A stretch of DNA of 64,000 nucleotides from Pseudovirgaria hyperparasitica (taxonomy: Eukaryota). A program made the position numbers and the translations under genes. Position 1 is the stretch's first letter. The number at the start of each line of letters is the position of its first letter. Positions 15,462 through 50,200 of the stretch are shown here, one piece after another. Where the stretch lies: the NCBI GenBank assembly GCA_010093815.1, contig ML996565.1; one strand, given 5' to 3'. Below the pieces are notes generated by a model that was not told where the DNA came from, ran no database searches, and worked only from the letters and a program-made list of their open reading frames with translations.

Positions 15462-18458
15462 AGGATATGAACGAAATGTCACTCACACCAAACTTGCTAA
15501 AAAATCTGGAAGAAGGTCGTTTTGCCTGCAGTATTGCGAACACAACGGGTCCAACCTTCCACAAATGACTACAGCGACTCACCTTCAGTGGAGGCTGCCA
15601 CGGAGTAAGTGATCTGTCCTGCTTGCTTCCCAGGCTCCAATTCTACACCAAGCTTCTACTCCCCGAAGATCAGGCCAAGACTCGCTGATGCCACCCAAGT
15701 GTTGGAGGAGAATGTATCTTCTGGCATGGACCGCATTTCACGCGCTGATGTCATCTTTCGATGCATGTTGCCGTCGCCACGGGGTATTGCTGGGATCATT
15801 GACCATGCTATGAAGACAGACGTGGCGTCGCGTGTCCGCGTGGGTGGCACAATCTGACAGACTATGCTGGCTGCCTCTAGCAACCCATACCATCGCGATC
15901 ACGCGTGTCGAGCCTAGGATCAAGAATAGGCGCACATTGTTCGCGGTGGAACTTGTGTTCGATTTTGTGTGACTCATCGTCGTGAGACACGGAGCAAGAT
16001 TTGGGGCGACGAGTGACCGGGCGCTTTGAAGAGTTCCATAACCGTGTTCTTTGCCGGACACTATCTGGAAAACCAAAGTTGTATGATTTTTATGACACAT
16101 ATATGCTGTTGTATATGAATCAACAAAGGACTAACGGCCACGACGTCAAAATTTGAGGTGAAGATGAGCCACCGCCTTGTTTGTTACGTGTGCATGAAAA
16201 CAGTTATGAATGTTTTACTTGTTTCCGATTTGGGAAGGCTCAAGGCCTCCTCTCTCGCGGTGGCATCTACTAAGCTTGAGCCAGTGTGAATCATCGCCGA
16301 GACTTGAAGCGGTGTGATATGGAACATAGCCGACTTTACCCGTTCAGTGAGGATGAAATAAAGTGGCGGATAAGGCCGGCGTGAGCAGGTAAAGCCACAG
16401 TCACAGCTTCTTTCTGAAGTTTATTAGTTTGAGTGCGACGCAACGATTGTTCAATGCTCCAGGTTTTGAAATGTCTACAGTGTCGTTGTATGGGGGCCTT
16501 TGATGAGTGAGATGGATGTGTGGCGAGGCGGGCGTCTGAGTAACGCAACGTAGGTATCCATACTACCCGCCGAGTCCGGTCTAGCTTGGGCTGGATGACG
16601 CCGTCCAGCTGGCTGATGACTGTACCGATACCGGACCCGCCCAATCTCATCGACATCTGACGATGCAACTGTGAAGGCGCTTCACGATAACATCGTCTTC
16701 AGCTTCGTTCAACAGTTTAGCTCAAGCTGAAGGGCAAGCTGGAAAGTCCCTTGGTATGCGCGTCACGGGACTCTGCACGGCTCCAGCTGATGACCGTGGC
16801 TTGTGGATATGTCGACGTTGACGTTCATCGCCATCCATCTTCCGTACTAACATCTAGCTGCGGCCATGTCCATCGTGGTCCGGAAGGCTTATGTGGGTCA
16901 GCATGGAGGCAAATGATAATTACTGTCTCTTTTTGGTTTCGTACAACGCCCCTCTGACCAACCAAGTACTAGCAGCACATTACCGAGCGAATGATGAGCA
17001 GCTGAAGGCTTCGAATATGGCAATCCTGCGGGGCTCGCCAGCATGCGAGTCATCGGCAGAAGGATGGGCTGACCTTGCTGAGTCTCCGGCTCTTCCAGAC
17101 GTTCTTTGCGAAGCGTCTCGCCACTGCTCCTCGTTGCTGTCGCGATATGGTGTGGTCGCATGTTCTTACGAGAAATTTGCTCTCCCTGGTGACTATTAGT
17201 TTCATTAGCATGCAAGCGCGCAATCGAGCCATGTCGCCAGTGCAGGAACACGGCCGCGAAAAGGCAGGTCGGCCTTGTTCACGGTTGACGCTCCCCCTGG
17301 TGACTCAACTAGCCGATAATACCCCTTGGAGGAGATGAAGGCTTCCTGAATAGGACTAATTAACGGACATTTCAGCGATTTATAGAGCCATACTTGGCTA
17401 AATAGTCTGGGCGCCCGCTGTAGTTTGGGGCTAAAGCAGCAAAGGCCAGCTTACTGCTGGGCTGGTGATTGGCCCAAGAGCTCATCTGTGTCTCAACAGG
17501 CTGCAGCATCGCAAGCATACATGAATTGGCGATACGAGCATGGATGTCCGCAATCTCTCGTTCAGATATCGTTCACTACTCAAGAATTGAAGAGCTCACG
17601 ACGCGCTGCAAAAGAAGAGCAATGGCAAGAACTGCGGCCAGGCAGCTGTGGCGAGGCTTGGAACGTTGATCCAGTTGTAATTAGGCGTTCTCGACAGTTG
17701 TCTCAGCCCCAAAGTGCATAATCATTTGTTGCAGCATTGCCTCGTTACAAGTTTGGCGCTGGCGGGATGGGATGATCGGAGGCTGGCTTTGCTAGGGGGG
17801 GCTCATCACTCATCACTTACGCGCGAACGCGACACGACGAAGCTATGCGACAGACGACCCATGGAGGGATGCCTGCGCTTTCCACCTGTCACTTTATGCC
17901 TCCAGGCTGTGCGGCCTTGCGAATGGTGTGAGGTGTGTCACGTTCGCAGGATGGACGGCGTAGGTGGACTACTTGAGGTTAAGTGACAGAGGTGAACGTT
18001 TGGCTACATTGATGAGTACGATGTTAGCGTGATGCAATTTTAATACGGGTGGCCAAACGATGAGGAAGACGTAGCACGAAATGATGCTGGCCACTCTGCT
18101 CTGGGTGACTCGAAAGGAGGCAATAATTAGACAGCATGAATGGCGAGTGATGAGTGGTAAGTGGTGGAGGATTGGTTGGAGGAGTGGAGGGTAATGCGAA
18201 ATGCTGGGAATTGAGTGGGTGCGGGCGCTGTCGAGGGGCAAAAAGCCTGACCGGACCGGGCAGCACTGGGGAGTGTGAGAGAGGGAGGAGGGCTTGTGCG
18301 AGTGTGTGTGTGCGTGTATGTGCGTGTGTGCCCTTTGCTTCCCCTTTGGAGTTTGGTGTGGGAAGGAAGCGGAGTCATCGCCCGTGTCCTCGCGCCATCA
18401 TCAAAACCACAGCGGCCGCCGCCCATACACACACCTTCTCGTCTCCAAGCAAGCGACG

Positions 18459-19471
18459 ATGGCCCCTTCGACGTCAACCTTCGAGCCTCACGGCATCTAA
18501 TACCAATACCATTACCACGAGCACTCGAAAGTCGTCTATCGAAGCAGCCAGAGCTTGTTGTCGTCCATCTCCTCTCACTTCTTTGTCTATCTTCACCAAT
18601 CTCCTCTCAGCTTATCCTTCTCGTTCGGTCCTCGTTCCGTCAGGTCTACCTACATTCCACCTACTAGCCAACAGTCCAGCTTTGTCTCACGTCCGCGTAC
18701 CGTTGTTTGCTGCCAAACGCCTCTGCCTGCTGTGTGGGAGCCTGCACAAAGACTCATACCAGCAGTCATTCACTCATACGACCTTGTTATATTACTTGCC
18801 ACTCTCTCTTGTGGCTCTTACCCACTCATACCCATCCGCCACCGCCAGTCTTCTGCGACTTTTGCCTCGTTCACTCGATCGCGATATCGCCCTCCCAACA
18901 TATTACCTGCCGTACCTGCATAACATTCTCAACGCAATACTACAATTCCGAATACTCTCATACCACTACATCATTCAACTCTCGCCGACTTTCTGCGAAA
19001 GCAGTCGTGTGCATTTGGAGACTCTGTTACGGTCACCATCTAAGCATCTTCTTCTTTCCAGATCACCGACCCTGTCACGATGGTTGATTCACCACACTCC
19101 GAACCTTCAGTCAACAGCCGCCCAGTATATACCATTGCTACCGAGACCAAGACTTTCGAATACGAAGCCTCTATGATTTAGATCTTCTTCACAAGACTTC
19201 CATCTACCGAGTTAGGATTACAGTAGCTCATCTACTGTTGGATCTCGGTCACGAACGTTTTGTCTACGGTCTATTCTCGCTAGCTCTCATTGGTATTACT
19301 GTGGTGAGCTTTTGACTGGAGCAACCCCAGTCAACTCGAGCTTCAACCATCAGCACTCGATATTTCTCTCCCAATACTCCTCCAGTTCTCTCGATATTTG
19401 ACCTGATACCTTCCATCTTATCATTTTACGCGCCTTTCTTTTTCATATACTCATATACTCATATACCCGCC
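18459..19471 (+). promoter_or_regulatory. Long pyrimidine-rich putative 5' leader of the cyclin gene with two uORFs (18459-18500, 19080-19181)
   Basis: The only ATGs in this span are at 18459, 19080 and 19173 (the last lies in frame inside uORF2). Both uORF starts read ACGATGG. Transcription start is not known. Confidence 0.6.
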
Positions 19472-21464
19472 ATGATGAGTCTCGATCTTCGATCGTCGTG
19501 TGCAAACCCCACCAGTTATCCCTACGCCTCCTCACTAGCTTCCTCAGCTTCTTCCTCCTCTTCCTCAGTCTTCTCCGACGACGCGCGGTCTCAGGATTCA
19601 TCTGCCAGCTCTACACAGTCCAGCCAGACTTACACAGACTCCTGGGCTAAAAACGCGTGGAACCAGCCGCTTGCTCGTGTTAGCACGTTTCCACAATCGC
19701 AGACGTCCTCTGTCCGGCGCAGCAATACCTCGACCAATCTACCTTCGTTAATCACATCTGGACTCCCCCTCTCAGTCGAGCAACGCCAGCACCCACGTAG
19801 ATCATCTATCAGTTCTCGTCCGCCGCCTACACTCGTACGACAAAGCGAGCGTAAGGTCAGCTTTGTAGATAGCCTAGTCGGTGAGCATATTTAGTTCTCT
19901 TTTCTTGTCATTCGCTAAGATATCACCCTTCAAAGTCTCTGCAACACAAATTGTGGAAGTAATATGGCCCCTCTCTGTGCCAGCTTGTCCATTGGATGAG
20001 CGCACTGGTAAGGGCGTTCTTCCGCTACGTACCTTTATACAAGAGACCCTACGTAGGTCGCGTACCAGCTACTCCACCCTCCAGGTGGCTCTGTACTACT
20101 TGATTTTGATCAAGCCTCACGTCCCTGCTACCGATTTTACAATGGAGCAACGTACGGACGACCACGCTTGGCGTTCCTTGCAATGTGGTAGGCGCATGTT
20201 TCTCGCTGCTTTGATACTCGCCTCAAAGTACTTGCAAGATCGCAATTTCTCGTCTCGTGCTTGGAGTAAAATATCTGGCCTCAAAGTCTGTGAAATCAAC
20301 ACGAACGAAATGGCTTTCTTAGAAGCTGTCAAGTGGAAGCTCCACATCACCGATGCTGTTTTCGAACGATGGCAACGAGTTGTCTTCGATCATACTCCGG
20401 GACACCCCCCTTCCCCTGGAGGATGTGCCCTCTTCAACTCTTGGAGAGCTGTCATGCCTCAACTGACCCCCGACCTGGACAAAGTATGCTTTGCGCCTCG
20501 GACATCCGAGCGCATAACTACGTCGGAGAAGTTACCCCTGCCTCGATCACCTCTCGGGTTTAGCCCACAGGAAGCAATGTCAACGCCTATCGAGACCAAG
20601 CTTCCGCGCTTCCTGGAACCCAAACCTGAGATGCTGCCACCGACTCCAACGCTACTTCGCACCGGCCTACTACCGACACCGTTGATGACCCCGCAATCTA
20701 TAGCGTCGTCCGCTCCTGCAGCGAGTGGGATGACGTTTGGATCAAGACGTCCATCAATGTGCTCGGCAATGGCTCAAGCTCAGAGTGTGTCAAATGCACG
20801 CTCCATCACGGAGTGGCCGTTTCCTACTTTCCGAAGGCCTTCTATCACATGTTCAGGCTCACTGTCTTCCTCTCCAGAGTCTATGGTATCCGACAATTCC
20901 AGTCGATCGTCTCGAGCCTCATCAATTTCGTCTGTCTCATCCGCTGGCTGGGCGCCGAATCAGGCCAACTTGGCCCGTATGGCGACTTGCCGCAACGTCA
21001 GACTGCCCTATCAAGTTCCCGTTCTTAGGCGAAGTGTGAGTCCTCAGGATGCTATCAGCGAGATGCCGTCACCTTGCCCGGATACTCGATATGTGGATGA
21101 TGACTGGGTACTGAAGACCCCTACAAGGTCTGTGTCAGCCTATGATCTTGGTTCTAGCAGCCGGAAGCGTGCTAGGGAATCTCTTGATTTGCACCAGAAT
21201 GTACGAGAGCAGCTCGCAACTCCGACTCCCGTCACCACCGTGCTTCCCGACCGCACTGTCGCGAAGAGCTTTGCCCTCCAACGCAATTCCACCCCTGCAA
21301 TTGACTTTGAGAGCAAGCAAACGCAATCACCTTCATCATTGTCTATGCATGAACGTCGTGTTCCAATACAGAAGGACCTAGGTCGCAAGCGGACTTGTGC
21401 CAGCGAAGCAACGCTCTTCATGAGCCGCCAGCCCGGTCCAGGCATGTGGGAAGACATCCTATAG
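19472..21464 (+). CDS. Pho85-type (Pcl5-like) cyclin with Ser/Pro-rich termini
   Basis: Cyclin box LPLRTFIQETLRRSRTSYSTLQVALYYL...LQCGRRMFLAALILASKYLQDRNFSSRAWSKISGL...EINTNEMAFL...WKLHI. Intron 19881-19935. Confidence 0.9.
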
Positions 21465-22340
21465 ATGATCCTCTCAACACAAACACCATTAGTGGCACCA
21501 AACTCTCCCAACTTGATACCACTCCCCACCCCATCTGTAAATTTTCCTCACACACCCTCCCATATACCTACCACTATCTTCCTTCATTTAGTCAACTTCT
21601 TGCGTCGTCTGAGTTTGTCATTTTCGGAGTGTGTGTGTGCATGTTCCAAAGGATCTTCAGCTAGTCGCAGCCTAGCCGGCGAATGGGCGGATGGAGTCCT
21701 TTGACACTGCATTGAAGATCTGGAGTAAGTCATTTGAAAACACAGCGTTCCATGCCGAAGCGTCTATTTCGAGCTTCTGTGCTGGTGCCTATCGTTGAGA
21801 TGTAAAGGGGGAGGCGCGTGAGGGCGGAGGTTATTGGTATGGAAGAAGGCAAGTAGGTAGTCTAGTTAGCTTGGCGCGACGCAGTGGGCGTGGCCATTGT
21901 ACTGAGTATTATATGTGATATGAAGTTTTTCGGATTAAGTCGATCAGTGGTGCGTACTGATTTGTGATCTTTCGTCTGATCACATTTTATGCACTGGCAG
22001 AGGTTTTCACAATTTGGCTGTTCTATTTTCGCTGGCGTTGACTTCTGGCTCCTGACGTCTGACTTCTCGATTTAATGCTGATATATTTCTCCCTCATCTA
22101 TCCCATATTCAAGTCTAGTCATTTATCAAGTCTGGTGTACGACTTGGCTAACTGTTGATTTTCACCTGTTCGGAAAGGAGCCCTGGTCGCGGATTCACTC
22201 ACATATGCGGCGTTAGCGACACACCGCGTCGAAATGCATATGCATCATAACTAGTCTGCAGCAAAAGTTATCCGTTACTTAGATATTGAGTGCTTCTAGC
22301 TACAGTGGTTAGCAGCTGGACAAGTAGCTCCCAGCTCGGT

Positions 22341-23983
22341 TCATAGCTCATCTGTGTTCCTCAAGCTCTCATCCTCCCTCAATACCAAACGATATAACCC
22401 CAACGAGTGCCGCGGTATATCAGCCGTGAACGTGCCCTTGGGCGTCCTATCCGGTCCAATGGTCCCAACATGCTTCCCCATGAGCGCCACATCACGGTTC
22501 ATAATCCCGGCCGCATAACTCGTCGCCGTCGCATTGTACCGCGTCAACGTTCCATTCACCCCAACCGGCATGCTCAGCGCAGTACTATTGATGATACTCC
22601 CAGCTTGACTCTCGCTCATCCGATTCCCCCAGAGATCATACACATCCCACACCATATCGAGCTCCGCCGGCCGCTTATACGCGCCCGCCGTCCACGAGTC
22701 GAGCAGGATATCGCTCAGCGTCATGTTCAGCGTCATATCCTCGTCCGAGGCATTGATGAGCGCGACGGCCTGGTCGGAGTTATTGAGGCCGCGGGTCCAG
22801 AGGGCGATTTCGCCCTGTCCGAACGCGTCCGGATGCAGCTCGTAGCGCCACTTCAGCACGGCCGCGCCGGCGGACGGGTCCTGGTTCAGCGCGATGACGG
22901 CCGGGTTGGCGTAGATGGCAAGGTTGGCGGGCGAGAGGGTGAGGACGTTTGTGCCGATGAGCAGGGGCGAGGAGTGTAGCGCCCACATGGAGAAGTGGAT
23001 GACGTATTCGCCGTCGGACTGGCCGCCGTTGCCGACCTCGAGCATGTCCATGTCGTTGAAGTAGCCGGACATGGTGCGCGAGGTGATGGCGGCCATTTTG
23101 TTGAGGATGTTCATGACGGAGCAGTGGAAGCCTGGCCAGCGGCAGCCGATGGCGGAGGTGCAGGGGCAGCGCTCGTCCGGGCGGTTGAAGGAGTCGTAGA
23201 TGTCGCCGGACATGCGGCCGCTGTTTGCGATGTCGTAGGCCCAGTCGTAGGGGTCGTCGTTGCCCCAGTTGCACATTGCGTATACGATCGGGCGGCCGGT
23301 CTTGTTCAGGGCGTCGGACATGACTTTGTACCGGTCGAATGATAGTTTGGGCGTGCCGGACTGGCCTTGGTTGAAGCAGTTGTCGTACTTGAGGTAATCG
23401 ACGCCTATCTCGGCCCAGTAGTCTGCGTCCTTCTGCTCGTAGCCCAGAGAGCCGGGGTATTTGCCGCAGGTGAATGTTCCTGCAGAGGAATAGATGCCGA
23501 ATTTCATACCCATGCTGTGGATCGTGTCCACGACGTACTTCATGCCATTAGGGAACTTCTTGTCTGTGGCGATATGTGAGCTTAGGTGCAACATTGGGGA
23601 CAACCACGGAACTCACCGTTGGACACAAGGTATCCAGTCTCATTACGACCAACAGACCAGCAATCATCAAGAATAATATGATCATAGCCAAGATCTCGCA
23701 GGCCATAGTCGACCATCGCTTTCGCCGTGCTCAAGAGCAGTGTTTCGTTGACATCGCAGTGAACTGAATGAAGCGCGTCAGTATCGAACAACTACTACAA
23801 CACCAAAAAAAACATACAAGCGTTCCAATTATTAAACCCCATACGCGGCGTCAAACTGAGGCCATTATACGACGACGCAGCAGGAACCACGACTTTGCCA
23901 TTCTGATCAAGATACGCAGCACTGTGCTGCATGAAGAGCGCCAGGCACGCAGAGAACAAGAATAGCGTCGTCTTGAAGCCCAT
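22341..23983 (-). CDS. Alpha-galactosidase, glycoside hydrolase family 27
   Basis: Signal peptide; NGLSLTPRMGFNNWN, ILDDCW, YLKYDNC (nucleophile), RMSGDI (acid/base) and NDMDMLEVGNGG. Introns 23764-23817 and 23564-23616. Confidence 0.96.
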
Positions 23984-43594: not shown

Positions 43595-46496
43595 CTAAAG
43601 ACTCATCGTCAACCATTCCCACTCGGCTGGCCCCGCGACGGCATTGCCTCCAGCAGTCAAGCCTTGCCCCATGGCACCCATGGGTAAACTATCGTGATGC
43701 ATGCCTGGTAGAGGCAAGCCGTGGCTCATCGGGCGGTTGGGATAGTTCTGAGGCTGCACTGACTTGCCGCTGGTGTCGTCTGCATCGCCCATCTCAAGCT
43801 CCTGTGTGTTGCCTTTGCTTTGCCCGCGAGCTCGCTTTGGTGCAACGGGCACGCCACGAACGCTTGAAGAAGCAGATGGAGCACTCGCAGCGACGGCAGG
43901 CTGTGCTCTCGGTGGACCGGGAGCAATTGGGACGACGCTGCTCTTACTCAGACCAGCATTAGTAGAGCTCGAAGCAGTGTTGGCAGATTGCGTATTAGCA
44001 CCGCCTGCGGATTGTGGCGACTCCGACTCTGCAGTCTTGCCGGACGTCGGGGTAGTGACAGGTGTATGCACAATCGAGTTTTTCCGTGAAGATTTCTTGG
44101 ACGACCGTGTGGAAGAGCCTGTCACCGGTGCAGTGGTACCACTACCACGGTTGCGCTTCTTAATAACGTCCGTCTTCAGCGACAGTGGACGAACGACGCC
44201 GTGCAGCTTCAAGAATAGACCACAGGCGTTGCACAACGGATGGCCTTCCGGGTTGCGCCTCCAGAGTGGCGTGGTTTGTGTAAAGCAATTTGTACACGTC
44301 GTGGGTGCGCCATTATCGCCGCCCTTTGTGCCCCCTGGGCTGACAGGCCGTGAAGGCGCTGCAGAATTGAAACCCGATTCCGGCGGCGAATTGGGCGATG
44401 ATTGAGAGACATGCTGAAGTCCTTGATGTTGTACCAAGCCAGCAGCGTTGGGCGTGGAGGCAGTGCGGGGTATCTTGCCTCGTCTCTGGTCACCTCCACG
44501 ATTTCGAATGTCACTAACAGACGCTGCAGACCCATGCGTACGTCCCAGACTACCACTACCGTTCCAATCCTGTGGCGAAGAAACCATTTCAGCGCCACCA
44601 ATGGTAACAGTCTTTCGTGGTGGTCCGGCAGGGTATCGTGCTGGAGTGGGATTGAATTGGTTGGAAAGGTCAGTTCCCCATTGGAAGTTGCTCCCCGAGT
44701 CGAAATTGTTCTCGTCGTCCATCGACGAGAACTGATTATGCGAAGGCATAGTCCGATCAGGAAATGCTCCGCCTTCGTCGTCCTCGCCGTCAGAATCTCC
44801 ACCAAACGTGAACATGTTATCCCGTGACATGGACATGCCTTGAGCACGGCCTGGAAATCCATGCAGCACTTGCGAGGGATTGACATGGCCTGGTTGTTGC
44901 TGTGCAAATGATGTCGCTTGAAACTGCGGAAGACTGGCGGCAGTCACTGCACCGAAGAGCGAATCACTATTAGGATTGAACATATACGATTGCTGCACCG
45001 AGGTGGACAGTCCTGACGGGCGCTGCAAGCCGTAAGTCTGTCTCGAATGCGTGTTTCTGACGTCTACACCATCACGGTTGAAGAACATTTGCTCTCCCTC
45101 GGGAACAGGCTGCGGCGTCGATACAGTAGATGGATACGCAGATCCAGGAGGTGAGTAGAAATCGGTCGAGGTGAGTGAAGAGGGCACGGAATTGGGTGGG
45201 TATACGGATGAGTAGGGGCCTTGTGGCATCATCGGCGAACCGACAGGCGAAAATGGGAAATTCTGTTGAAGAGGCCCGGCAGAGTTGAGTATAGGGTCGT
45301 GGTTGTCGATGCTGAAGGCTGTGGTGTCGAGGTGGAATGGCACATGAGGATGCTGAGATTGAGGGTAGAAGGCTGAGCCAGGGAAGTTGTGGTCGAGACT
45401 GTAGTGATGTAGAGCAGAGTCCATGTCTTGGTCAGCTGGCATCGAAGTATTGTTGACAGGAGGAACCTGAGGGGATCGCTCAGCCGGTCGCTTCCGATTC
45501 TGACAATAATTAGACACGTTGAACAACATGATGACAATTCATACTCACACGTCGCTCATCAATACTCGTCTTTCGCACATGTCGCTGGACGTAGCCAAAT
45601 TCTCTGCCTCGACTGGCAATTGGCGGAACCGACGGTGCCGAAGCTCGTAAGACATGTAGATTGGGATCGTTGGTCTGACTAGGTTTGCGGATAGGAATGG
45701 ATGGAGCGACAGCGTGAGAGGCGGTGATGTAATCAGAAGAAGAGTCCGGCGAGATGCCTGCAGGCGAGCCGACATTCTCGGATTCGATAAAGTCGTCGAG
45801 GTTCATGGCATCGGAGGGCGGTCCATGTGTCTGTGCGCCCTGGTCAATGGAGCTCCGTAACTGGGCAATCCCACTGGGAGTAGCTTTGGCGGCTCTGGAT
45901 GATTGCAATAATAGTCTGTGAGCGAGATGTTAGTACAGGCGAGGAGCAGTCGCAAGATACGATCATGTAGAGAAGTGTGCGCAAGTCAAGTGTATGGTCG
46001 CAAGTGCATTCACATACGCTTTTCGCTCAGCGGCCTCACGTCGCAGGTTCATGGACATCATCCGCCATGACAGGTTCTCCATGCGCTCTCGATTCGGCAG
46101 ATTAGACTTTGTCCGGCTGTACAGTCTCCACATCTGAGCGCCCAAAGGGTCCTTCTTTTGCATTTCCTCTGGCGAGTCGACCTCAGCGCCATCGTCTTCC
46201 CATGACGGAAAGATGGCAGCGTCGAGCACGCCCTGGCGAGCGGCCGACTCGAGTGGTGACAGCTCCAGTTTGGAGTCCCAGGTCGAAGTCGAGGTGAGCG
46301 AGTGTAAGGCGGAGGAGGCAGCGGAAGAATGGTCAAAGGTGTTATTGTTAATGCTGTTGTTGTTGGTGGTGGTGAAGCGGAGCTTTCGCGGGGAGGAGGA
46401 TGATGTCGGAGAGGTCAGATGGTCGTCCAGTGGCATGGAGTATTCGTCAAGGTCGTCTGAGAGTCCCCCACGCACCCCATATTGCGCCCCAGACAT
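43595..46496 (-). CDS. areA: GATA-type global nitrogen regulator AreA/Nit2
   Basis: N-terminal DPL...[20 protein letters not shown] motif, [12 protein letters not shown], zinc finger [50 protein letters not shown] and diagnostic C-terminus EWEWLTMSL. Two introns (about 45915-46017 and 45500-45549). Confidence 0.98.
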
Positions 46497-47203
46497 AGCC
46501 GGCAGCAGCTGGTGTTGCGCAGAAAGCGGGCGTCAGCAACACAAGCGGGCGAGGAAGAATGGCGCAGCAGGCCTGGGGCTGGCGGTTGAGGCGAGAAGTG
46601 AGGGCTTTTGCCTTTGCTTATTCGTTTGTTCTTCCTGCAGGCTCCTAGGTGGAGGAAAAAGGGAGGGAGGGAGGGAGGCGTGGTGGCTTGAGGCGACGAT
46701 GCCGCTGGAGGAGCTGGTCGATGCAAGTCGCAGCAATTGAGAGGCAGCAGCAACGGCAGCAACAGTGACGGACCAAAGAGCTGGTGCAGGACCTGGTCTT
46801 GGTCTATTACTGTTACTGTTGTAGTAGACGGGGGTGGTGTGGTGAGTCTGGAGTGAATTTGGTGAGGGTAGCCGTGGGCGGAAGGCCGCTGAGGCCGCCT
46901 TAGCCTCAAGCCTTTAGTGGAAGGATGAGGTGGGATGGATGGAGAGTGTGTGGGGCCGTCAAGAGGAGGTAATAGTAGCAAAGTAGGTGATGGAAAGTAG
47001 GAGTAAAATAGAAAGGAATGAATGTACTGTGTACCGTGTACCGTGCACTATACTATGTAGCAAGCCAGCTGTAGTAGCGAATGGGCGGTGGTTTGACAGT
47101 CTTGAATGCAGTACTGTGTAAGTAATAGCAGAGGGACAAATCGCCCGTGGTTGGGGTGTCCTGAGTCCCGTGTGTGCCGGCAGAAAAAAAGATGCAGAAA
47201 GAT

Positions 47204-47250
47204 GGGGCAAGGGGGGGGGGGGGGGGGGGGGATCAAGGGGGGGATTGGGG
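47204..47250 (+). repeat. Poly-G tract (about 21 nt) with flanking G-runs upstream of areA
   Basis: GGGG-caa-G21-atcaa-G7-att-GGGG is directly visible. Confidence 0.9.
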
Positions 47251-50200
47251 ATGAAGGATGAGGATGAGGGTGTTGTGTGTGTGTGGTAGGTCGCGCGCTT
47301 GTCGGGGGGTGTCGGAGCGGCAACTGGTGGTGGTGGTAGTGGTGGTGGCAGTAATAGTGGGAGGGCGGCGGGGGCTCTCTCTCTCCTCTCTCACTGGCAG
47401 TCTGGCACCGGCAGGAGGCTGTAGCTAGATCCACCGGTCCAGCAGCCAGTGTCAGCAGCAAGTCGTCAACCTATCCGTCTTGGCCTGTGTGTTTTTAGCG
47501 ACAATAATTATATTCTGCAAAGCCAGACCAAATTACAGCAAACGGCCATGGAGTTGTTGATGATTATGTTTCTGGGAGGAGAGGAGGGGGCCCATGCTAT
47601 ATCATAGATATATATCCATGTACATTTCGAGCGAGACGGCGAGATGGCGAGACGACGCAACACTTCTGCTTCTTGCTCGGCCGCGTGCTCCAGTCTTTTT
47701 TTCTTCCGGCCAAAGTGAAGTGGGCTACGAGCCATGTGGTGGTGGCGGGACTCCCTAAATATCAATAACTGTAACTGTCTTCGTATACATCAGATCCCGG
47801 CTATGCGAGTCTGTCTCATAAGAGATGTATTACTGTGATTTTTATCTTCAGCTAGGCCTTGACACCTTGTGAGAGTCCGGCCTAACTGGTGATTGTAGCT
47901 AAATTACCTATCCTGTCAGCCGCCATCGTGTATACCCAGACTTATCATGTCCGGGTAGCACGTGTCAAAGCTCTGTCTGGTAAGCAACACACGCAGGACG
48001 ACATTTCGTGTATATGGATGGCATTGTTTTCAACCGTACAAGCACCTCGCGATGAACACTGCACCGGCAGAGATGTACATACACACGAAGTAATAGTTAC
48101 AGTAGCTAAATATTCACAAACTCACTATTACTGCCGCACTGCGCAACTAAGGCACGCCAGCCTGCAGCAATCCTGGCAAGAATAACACTGCAGATGACAA
48201 TGCACGGTCGCCAGCATGTGCAAAGGTGGCGCTGGCCAGTGACGGGCTGACCATGGGAGAATAAAAAGGAGTGTGGGTGGTGACGGTGGTGACCTGTTCG
48301 TTCCGGTGCGTGGGTGGGGTGTGCTGCTTCACACACTTACACATACACATACATACAGTACATCTGTATATGGGAGTGTGTATGTGTGTGGGAGAACGAG
48401 TCAGGCTTCCAGCCAATCGTTCAACAGATGCTGCTCTTTGTCCTGGACTCCAGTCGCTGCTCATCATCTGGCTGCCAGTATATTCTGCTTATTATTACAT
48501 CCCAGCCGCGCTGCTCGCCAATCCCTCTCTTCACACCTTGACCTCCCGTCTCGAGCTCGCTGTCGCGTACCGTACGGATACACTCCTGCATCTGTCTTGT
48601 CCCGGCCCCGCCCCGCCCTTGAAGGCGACTTTTCGGGGGGCCTCGATTGTGGAGCTTCTCCTCTCCAGATTCTGTTACTTCGCGCGCGATGCCTTTGGTC
48701 CTCTCTTCCGCATTCCCAGTCTTCTACTGCAAGGGAATGTTCTTTGAAGTGGAACCCAGTTCTACTGCCCCATTAACAGGACTCCTCGAGGACGCGAGTC
48801 ATCCAACGTTTCATCCAAAGTGAAAAGAAAATTTTGGAAAAAAAAAAGAATTGCGACTCCGCGTTTATGACCAGCATTACGGATCGGCAGTAGGATTGAA
48901 GTCTGGAGTGAGTCGTTGTAACGTCGATCGGTGGTGACAAAAGTAAGGGTGCATCATCGCTGCCATCTCCGTGATTGAAGGAGTCTCGTTTGCCCGTGTG
49001 CAGCTACCAACAACCACCTGCCAGATTCCATTCCGTCATCATGCCTTTTGAATGAACGGGTGGGAGGAATGCTTATTAAATCCACATGTGTCTGTGGATC
49101 CATCTGCTAATTACACGCGATGCTCACTTTTGTCATCAACGCCTTCCGTAGCTAATTCCCTATTAGACAAGACTCTGTACCTAGCGTTCGCCAGTATAAT
49201 GTTCTTGGGCGCATGTGCGATGTGCATATGCGACACACAAAGACTCCACGTGACTGCATGCATACTTCGGTTCTCGGTCTTCGTGCCGACCTTTTTTTTG
49301 ATGTGCGACCGGTTGGTTGTCGACCAAGCTCGGATCAGCGAATCCGTTGGCTGTCGTAAGAATGTCACCACAGGCGAATACCGCGGCAGTACTGTGTATG
49401 TATTTTGTCTTTGACTTGCCACACGGTCGTTGTGTTGTTGTTGCCAGACTCGTCAAGGGCGCCAGAGACAATTCCCTTGAACGCGCATGAGGGACAACAA
49501 CGTCATGCGAGATCGCATGCGGAAATGCCACCTGCACCCGGATCCTTGCTGTCAACTAACAAGCTTCTCGTCATGCAGACCATATCCCGGGTAGTGCTGC
49601 CACCCACCTTGCTGCCCAGCGAGCTTTGATCATTCCTAAATATTCCGAACAGACCCTCTTTAGTATCGTAACCTTTGCGAACAGAGCTCGTCGAAAATTC
49701 GGCGCATACGCAATACATAGAATAGCATGAATCGTATAGCCAAATTATCAGCCAGTTCAATGAATGCGTTTGATATGCTGGCTCCGCGCAAGCGACTCAC
49801 ACTGTGTGAGTGAATATGAGACGGCACTAACGTTGGTCCGCGAGTTTTATCGGATGGAATAGACCGGCGGCGGCAGCTACGCCTGCCCTAGTACAGAATC
49901 TCGAGAACCATGCCAATTGAGATTTCTCTAGACCTTACGAGAGTCCTATAGCGCACGTTGTGAGTCGCGTCTGAAGATTTGATCGTAGCAGTTGTGCGCT
50001 GATAGAGAAGAACCTATTCCGTAGGCTGTAGTGGTAGCACTTGTTGAGGAATTTGAATTCATGCCGTAGTGTTGTATAGCTCTTATGGCTATTATCGGAC
50101 AAGTGTGGTCATCTAGAGGCTTCAAGACCCTGCACGCACAGGCCCTGCGGGTTTGGTCGGCTTATGGGTCTACTGGTCTCGTGACCCTTGGAGCCCTACG

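Follow-up and report, generated by a model that had tools for sequence, protein, structure and literature searches.

A conserved two-uORF leader with a long RNA stem over uORF2 as a candidate cis-regulatory element of a Pcl5-like cyclin gene in Pezizomycotina

The leader of S. cerevisiae PCL5 carries two AUG uORFs, which are conserved among yeasts and repressive (bioRxiv 10.1101/2023.05.11.540079; PMC1964767). According to the accessible part of the preprint they maintain translation under ISR. The original prediction for the present locus had pointed to the uORF-containing leader of PCL5. The yeast leader is like the one described here in its two AUG uORFs and in belonging to the cyclin that A. 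nidulans AN9500 matches best. The accessible text on the yeast leader also describes a tract of 29 A and UUG uORFs and no stem, whereas the leader analyzed here is about 1 kb long, contains a stem of about 210 nt that overlaps uORF2, and has no A tract.

The cpc-1/cpcA leaders of Pezizomycotina (PMC5487733) likewise combine a short uORF1 with a longer uORF2, both in good contexts and conserved over classes. Their uORF1 has 3-6 codons, their uORF2 35-70 codons (with stop), and the main frame is open with near-cognate starts (PMC5487733). Here, in contrast, uORF1 has 13 codons and uORF2 24-33, an in-frame stop lies upstream of the cyclin, and a large stem is present. The original prediction had assigned the locus to this layout. 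Two conserved AUG uORFs in good context, as expected for delayed reinitiation, were indeed found, but uORF1 exceeds 3-6 codons and there is no open N-terminal extension of the cpc-1 kind, so the leader is not a member of the cpc-1 type; it may work partly like one.

Two further systems were compared. In START-type initiation, a stable structure lies about +23 to +26 from the start codon, with an optimum at that distance in mammalian lysate (bioRxiv 10.1101/2024.02.23.581729), and the structure found here begins at +26. Repression of the main ORF is part of this likeness and is putative in our case. The START cases described in the accessible sources are local hairpins (mammalian lysate, Arabidopsis), whereas here a long-range covarying duplex encloses the uORF stop. 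The fungal amd motif (PMC5640933) is similar in that, 5' of a gene, a uORF and a conserved RNA structure overlap; it differs in its conserved peptide of 6-8 residues and amidase-like gene, as compared with a cyclin and a stem without an Rfam match.

No cyclin is named in the table of 17 fungal structures in PMC8216456 or the summary of 15 motifs in PMC5640933, as far as these are accessible, and the word 'cyclin' is absent from the main texts of both. Neither 'pas1' nor 'cyclin' occurs in the accessible text of PMC7498311. A literature search with most subscription papers outside its reach yielded no paper on the leader of an AN9500-type cyclin; judged by title and abstract, none of the papers mentioning AN9500 deals with its leader, and none was found that links Pcl5 with CpcA in Aspergillus or a pas1 uORF with starvation in fission yeast.

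The cyclin gene and its transcript

The window, that is, the whole stretch of 64,000 nucleotides analyzed, contains the features listed in Table 1. Exon 2 of the cyclin gene encodes a Pho80-type cyclin domain (PF08613, 23.9 bits against a cut-off of 21), and homologues of the protein bear the names 'PHO85 cyclin-5' and 'pas1'. The protein is 50% identical over 362 aa (E 4e-100) to XP_001270336.1 of A. clavatus, a homologue of A. nidulans AN9500, 'Putative PCL5', in the supplement of PMC6078057. AN9500 in turn matches yeast Pcl5 at E 9e-11 and S. pombe Pas1 at E 1e-24 (PMC6078057); the likeness to yeast Pcl5 is taken via AN9500 from this source, and our own comparison was with mould sequences. 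Two further matches within the genome are only 31-33% identical. The Pcl5-like identity originally proposed is thus borne out by the domain and by the identity to a listed AN9500 homologue, and on sequence comparison the cyclin is the AN9500 orthologue, of group II and Pcl5-like, rather than ClgA/AN4984 or PclA. Together with Pho85, the AN9500-type cyclin would have the putative role of marking Gcn4/Cpc1 for degradation.

Table 1. Positions of leader and gene features of the cyclin locus in the window
Feature	Position	Strand	Remark
Second TGACTC	18106-18111		
Candidate Gcn4/Cpc1-like site GAGTCAT	18372-18378		87 nt 5' of uORF1
uORF1	18459-18500	+	13 codons; purine at -3
Spacer uORF1-uORF2	18501-19079	+	579 nt; ATG-free, pyrimidine-rich, weakly structured (folding z -0.5 to +1.8)
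Conserved GACTCAT in leader	18751-18757		followed by TA-rich element 18787-18794
uORF2	19080-19181	+	33 codons; TAG stop; codons 9 onward are the 5' strand of the stem
Whole irregular stem-loop	19105-19321	+	217 nt; encloses uORF2 stop
Basal helix, 5' strand	19105-19134	+	begins 26 nt from A of uORF2 AUG
Basal helix, 3' strand	19291-19321	+	ends 140 nt past uORF2 stop, 150 nt before cyclin ATG
Cyclin exon 1	19472-19880	+	N-terminus aligns with 20 homologues
Intron	19881-19935	+	55 nt, GT..AG; junction present in contigs of both runs
Cyclin exon 2 (PF08613)	19936-21464	+	Pcl5/Pas1-like

Contigs from two runs of one sample match the window and were read as RNA because they skip the intron. They run without gaps from 18482 in one run and from 18551 in the other to the intron, so that uORF2 lies inside a spliced contig; its removal by splicing, which the original prediction had named as a point to check, is absent in the contigs of both runs. 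Positions 18274-18481, including the uORF1 ATG at 18459, are without contig cover in both runs; contigs cannot fix a transcript start, and this stretch was given no weight in placing it. Among 43 intron-less orthologous contigs, 21 reach uORF1 and 22 start 3' of it. Starts between 11 nt upstream of uORF1 and 7 nt inside it were seen in 13 of the 21, and none of the 21 starts more than 115 nt upstream, although in five of them uORF1 is the first ATG by definition, which makes the distance circular. These contig starts are a weak hint that uORF1 lies close to the cap. At the other end, the cyclin contigs continue beyond 22500 into a convergent alpha-galactosidase gene (PF16499; window 21464-22500); a contig with two genes is no proof of a single transcript.

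The uORFs and their conservation among orthologues

Both predicted uORFs, of 13 and 33 codons, are present with the proposed peptides, and the region 18501-19471 contains only the two ATGs claimed, at 19080 and 19173 inside uORF2. The expectation of about 15 ATGs was too high, since the composition gives 9.9 (mononucleotide) or 9.1 (dinucleotide). The Poisson probability of two ATGs is 0.003-0.006, uncorrected for the post-hoc choice of region. On the + strand of the 64 kb, segments of 969 nt with at most three ATGs start only at 18202-18204 and 18319-18506, both over the leader. The depletion is thus real, but it was also found in two paralogous cyclin leaders of the genome, with 3 ATGs in 1280 nt (Clg1-like) and none in 1579 nt (Pcl1-like) of upstream sequence, these labels resting on a reading of the paralogue sequences. 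The shortage of ATGs is generic for long leaders and nothing special to this cyclin.

The putative leader of the Pcl1/PclA-like cyclin (L085, G000:C18:600000-606000, minus strand) would be expected to contain 15.7 ATGs. That of the Clg1-like cyclin (L084, G000:C3:1467500-1473500, minus strand) is an ATG-poor stretch of 1.3 kb with uORFs of 15, 5 and 5 codons as well as one that overlaps the CDS. Around its second uORF there are short stretches complementary to one another over a long range, and the best folding z is -2.6 outside a GT/CA repeat; folding from the MKTTR uORF was not significant (z +0.74), and this leader gave no match to the stem described below. A second ATG-free stretch occurs on the minus strand of the window at about 46200-47600, where 969-nt segments go down to 0 ATG (starts at reverse-strand index 16382-16828); it is possibly another long leader.

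To compare orthologues, we took the best 80 of 298 confirmed metagenome stretches and dropped four (three start inside the CDS, one lacks an anchor); the remaining 76 were grouped with the window into 52 clusters. For class labels only, a quick tree was drawn that included named proteins; together with homologue searches it placed the clusters in Dothideomycetes, Leotiomycetes, Sordariomycetes (two loci) and Eurotiomycetes (one informative locus). A uORF of the uORF2 type, with 24-33 codons and a start 264-755 nt upstream of the cyclin ATG, was present in 46 of the 52 clusters; five of the other six are too short to reach it, and the sixth, L059, has a 129-codon ORF there. With at least 800 nt of upstream sequence, all 39 clusters contain it, as compared with 28% of shuffles. 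Position -3 of uORF2 is a purine in 46/46, although no rule selected for this, and the stop is TAG in 38/46. In 32 leaders with a hand-chosen uORF1, 78 ATGs were counted against 330 expected, and the spacer has a median of 534 nt (range 420-724); for L034, L049 and L071 in this set the second ATG was used, as the contig end cuts the first. In the 15 loci that resemble the window most, uORF1 has 13-15 codons, as against 5-8 in the other Leotiomycete-type loci; the uORF1 dN/dS is 0.58 across ten Pleosporales-type sequences.

The alignment of orthologues called for by the original prediction thus indicates that the layout of a short 5'-proximal uORF1, a spacer of about 530 nt and a uORF2 of 24-33 codons is conserved over four classes of Pezizomycotina, and that selection on uORF2 acts on its bases and not on its peptide. 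The shared ACGATGG context, common frame and 579-nt gap hold in the window, but context and frame vary among orthologues. Every frame combination occurs there, so that a meaningful frame of uORF1 to uORF2 or to the cyclin was rejected, as was the idea that the TAG is read through, or edited, to continue in the cyclin frame. Both uORFs (stops at 18498-18500 and 19179-19181) are mostly TAG-terminated in orthologues, for which shared ancestry may be the cause. The cyclin frame is open for 52 codons upstream, up to a stop 156 nt 5' of the ATG, and for 6-234 nt in correctly anchored orthologues. A 340-codon frame without stop or ATG at 18154-19176 is taken as chance, since the longest open frames in the 32 leaders have 46-298 codons and none is common to all.

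Some lineages have additional elements. Pleosporales-type loci (e.g., L010:3313-3766) have 320-530 nt between stem and cyclin ATG, where the window has 150 nt; this segment includes extra blocks of conservation, and its consensus fold is weaker, at -20.8 kcal/mol. Extra lineage-specific uORFs with 6-8 codons, most of them in a weak context and all absent from the window, occur between uORF1 and uORF2 or 3' of the stem (e.g., at about 850 nt 5' of the cyclin ATG in L010, L023 and L039, and at about 120 nt in L043, L050 and L068).

The upstream region and the leader also contain GAGTCAT/TGACTC-type motifs, which we take to be Gcn4-like. A motif set widened after inspection of the data is represented between -160 and -55 of uORF1 in 13/16 loci that have at least 500 nt upstream (other bins at most 5/14), and at +150 to +255 in 22 of 32 leaders. 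Over 500 nt upstream, the 6-mer TGACTC/GAGTCA is not enriched (9 in 8000 nt vs. 38 in 31207 nt). Only the position of the motifs is non-random, and not their abundance. The positioned upstream motifs would fit a putative Cpc1 target. In most Dothideomycete-type leaders a TA-rich element follows the internal motif by about 45-60 nt, and the two together are possibly the DNA site of an internal promoter. Pairing of GACTCAT with the cyclin start (ATGAGTC) was rejected, being unconserved among orthologues.

The RNA stem over uORF2

The original prediction had overlooked a conserved RNA stem that overlaps uORF2. In the leader alignment, the most conserved part of uORF2 is complementary, in reverse orientation, to a block 3' of its stop that is also conserved. 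The fold of 19070-19340 has -82.4 kcal/mol (z -4.57), and none of 200 shuffles was as stable. The basal helix persists when the whole leader is folded, with pair probabilities of 0.88-1.0 at paired positions; folding of the remainder of the leader is unremarkable. Orthologous stems extend over 160-245 nt, with folding energies between -56 and -107 kcal/mol. The uORF2 stop lies about 32 nt before the hairpin midpoint. A search from +15 to +60 of the uORF2 AUG for long-range helices (7 bp or more) placed the start at +22 to +32 in 44/46 clusters and missed L021 and L055. In all 40 aligned loci the distance from the AUG to the core is 25, 28 or 31 nt; this alignment comprises 40 of 44 loci, the helix of the four left out being of different sequence.

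RNAalifold gave nine pairs, of which six are changed on both sides. A set of 21 pairs that we read off the sequences was paired in 87% of 780 cells, and 12 of the 21 changed on both sides, counts that ignore relatedness. Their score was reached by 0/500 shuffles, and slid controls, a comparison biased towards a structure derived from those very sequences, paired in 24-46%. The outer 12 pairs are 96% paired and the inner nine 73%, because their register differs among classes. Since changes are inherited by clades and much of the basal helix is invariant, with the core pairs CCAGUC/GACUGG near-invariant over classes, the covariation rests on few independent events. A covariance model built from 19 Dothideomycete sequences recovered held-out Leotiomycete, Xylariales-type and Eurotiomycete loci, with matches falling on the uORF2 coordinates (rough E 1e-18 to 5e-4). 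In 14 loci of Dothideomycetidae type or of short length, and likewise in both paralogue regions, the model failed to find the element in full. By DNA search the stem sequence occurs only once in the genome, and the four Rfam matches all have E >1, none of them on the stem or at the gathering score. The comparisons indicate that a long, covarying RNA stem is the dominant conserved element of the leader.

Selection on uORF2 was assessed separately for bases and peptide. Its dN/dS was 1.03, 0.93 and 0.75 in three groups, with 0.93-1.03 in two Dothideomycete groups; in the Leotiomycete group the arm has 0.6 and the part beyond it 0.47. Synonymous change in the paired codons is low (dS 0.08-0.17, vs. 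1.1-2.3 in the cyclin CDS, where dN/dS is 0.02-0.22). The signature of a conserved peptide, dN/dS well below 1 with free synonymous sites, was not seen in uORF2. Its apparent peptide conservation is explained by uORF2 being a strand of the stem, and the alignments indicate that uORF2 is kept in frame, length and position while its amino acids follow from the base pairs.

Candidate mechanisms and implications

The arrangement of stem and uORFs probably sets the number of ribosomes that reach the cyclin. Our best reading, with a probability of roughly 0.55, is that uORF2 acts, by virtue of the stem, as a strong trap for ribosomes, without reinitiation and with bypass under regulation; we infer the steps from anatomy and conservation. 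Ribosomes would load at the cap, translate or slip by the 5'-proximal uORF1 and scan the spacer of about 580 nt. The foot of the stem, just ahead of a ribosome on the uORF2 AUG, would hold it there; held ribosomes would initiate on uORF2, elongate slowly in the duplex, terminate inside it and be recycled. Cyclin would be made only by ribosomes that bypass the uORF2 AUG and pass the stem, a fraction that would rise if, as in cpc-1, too little ternary complex is available after uORF1, or if a Ded1-type helicase opens the stem. By analogy, amino-acid or ISR signalling may be the likeliest trigger, at about even odds if uORF2 is such a trap.

In Arabidopsis, structures 3' of uAUGs enforce repression by uORFs and are opened by homologues of Ded1p/DDX3X (bioRxiv 10.1101/2023.05.09.540021), and reinitiation is described as lowered by both length and structure of a uORF. 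Together with the position of the foot, this favours a repressive trap at uORF2. The covariation of the stem and the suppressed synonymous change in uORF2 are further points for it. By analogy, the repressive, ISR-sustaining uORFs of yeast PCL5 and the positioned Gcn4-like motifs upstream would also speak for it. On the other hand, a stem of this stability should also stop ribosomes that bypass uAUG2, which may make it doubtful that bypass alone delivers cyclin. The context of uAUG2 is already good, and the structure optimum came from CUG, for which the effect in mammalian lysate was measured, AUG being rather insensitive to stem position (bioRxiv 10.1101/2024.02.23.581729). Further points against it are the uORF1 of 13-15 codons in this lineage, which is long for reinitiation, the small number of independent events behind the covariation, and the link between Cpc1 and Pcl5 in moulds, which is still putative.

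Since so stable a stem should also block bypassing subunits, an inverse of the GCN4 arrangement keeps some standing, although we consider it unlikely. Here, scanning 40S subunits would be stopped by the stem, only an 80S ribosome translating uORF2 would melt it, and the same or trailing subunits would then reach the cyclin AUG, so that cyclin would be made when initiation is healthy and ternary complex plentiful, and be off in starvation. This would suit a cyclin that destroys Cpc1 on recovery, the size of the stem, the position of the uORF2 stop shortly before the hairpin midpoint, and a uORF2 whose frame, length and stop are kept while its peptide is free; moreover, the translation efficiency of yeast PCL5 is reported to drop more than 3-fold upon eIF4E depletion. 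However, reinitiation after 24-33 structured codons should be poor, the strands could re-pair behind the ribosome, and in yeast the PCL5 uORFs act as repressors that maintain output under ISR. If it were true, one eIF2-alpha signal would turn cpc-1 on and its destroyer off, with opposite leader designs for cpc-1 and the cyclin conserved across Pezizomycotina.

Plain delayed reinitiation of the cpc-1/GCN4 kind without involvement of the stem, as first proposed, appears quite improbable. The two-uORF layout in good contexts, the PCL5 precedent and a uORF1 of 5-8 codons in Leotiomycete-type loci agree with it, but no feature is more constrained than the stem, which keeps a locked position relative to uAUG2, and a uORF1 of 13-15 codons here and a spacer of 420-724 nt do not suit it. 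There is also little chance that the leader serves an isoform switch, in which an internal promoter (GACTCAT and the TA-rich element) would give a transcript without uORF1 and the choice of start site would regulate. The internal motif in 22/32 leaders, the element following it in most Dothideomycete-type leaders and the 22 of 43 contigs starting 3' of uORF1 point that way; such contig starts are, however, expected from 5'-incomplete assembly, the shorter isoform would keep uORF2 and stem, and the motif set was picked after the data were seen. That the stem works outside initiation, by recruiting a dsRNA-binding protein, a nuclease or a localisation factor, is very improbable: the near-invariance of the CCAGUC/GACUGG core exceeds the need of pairing alone, but the fixed frame and AUG distance would be left unexplained. 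That uORF2 encodes a regulatory nascent peptide, as does the AAP uORF of arg-2, is barely credible, for despite Pro-Val at codons 8-11 in most orthologues and the lower Leotiomycete dN/dS, the values near 1 in two Dothideomycete groups and the frozen synonymous sites speak against it, and the conserved residues coincide with paired bases.

From the sequence comparisons, we judge the leader to be a genuine and conserved cis-regulatory element. It offers a natural candidate, likewise conserved, for uAUG selection assisted by structure. Its covarying stem, present in four fungal classes at a fixed distance from the uAUG, permits exact compensatory-mutation tests in Neurospora or Aspergillus. The stem element could become a new RNA family, and it cautions that a seemingly conserved uORF peptide can be the strand of an RNA helix. 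Finally, the degradation of CPC-1 in moulds is stated as unexplained in the literature accessible to us, and the stem leader names a candidate control point of this amino-acid feedback loop.
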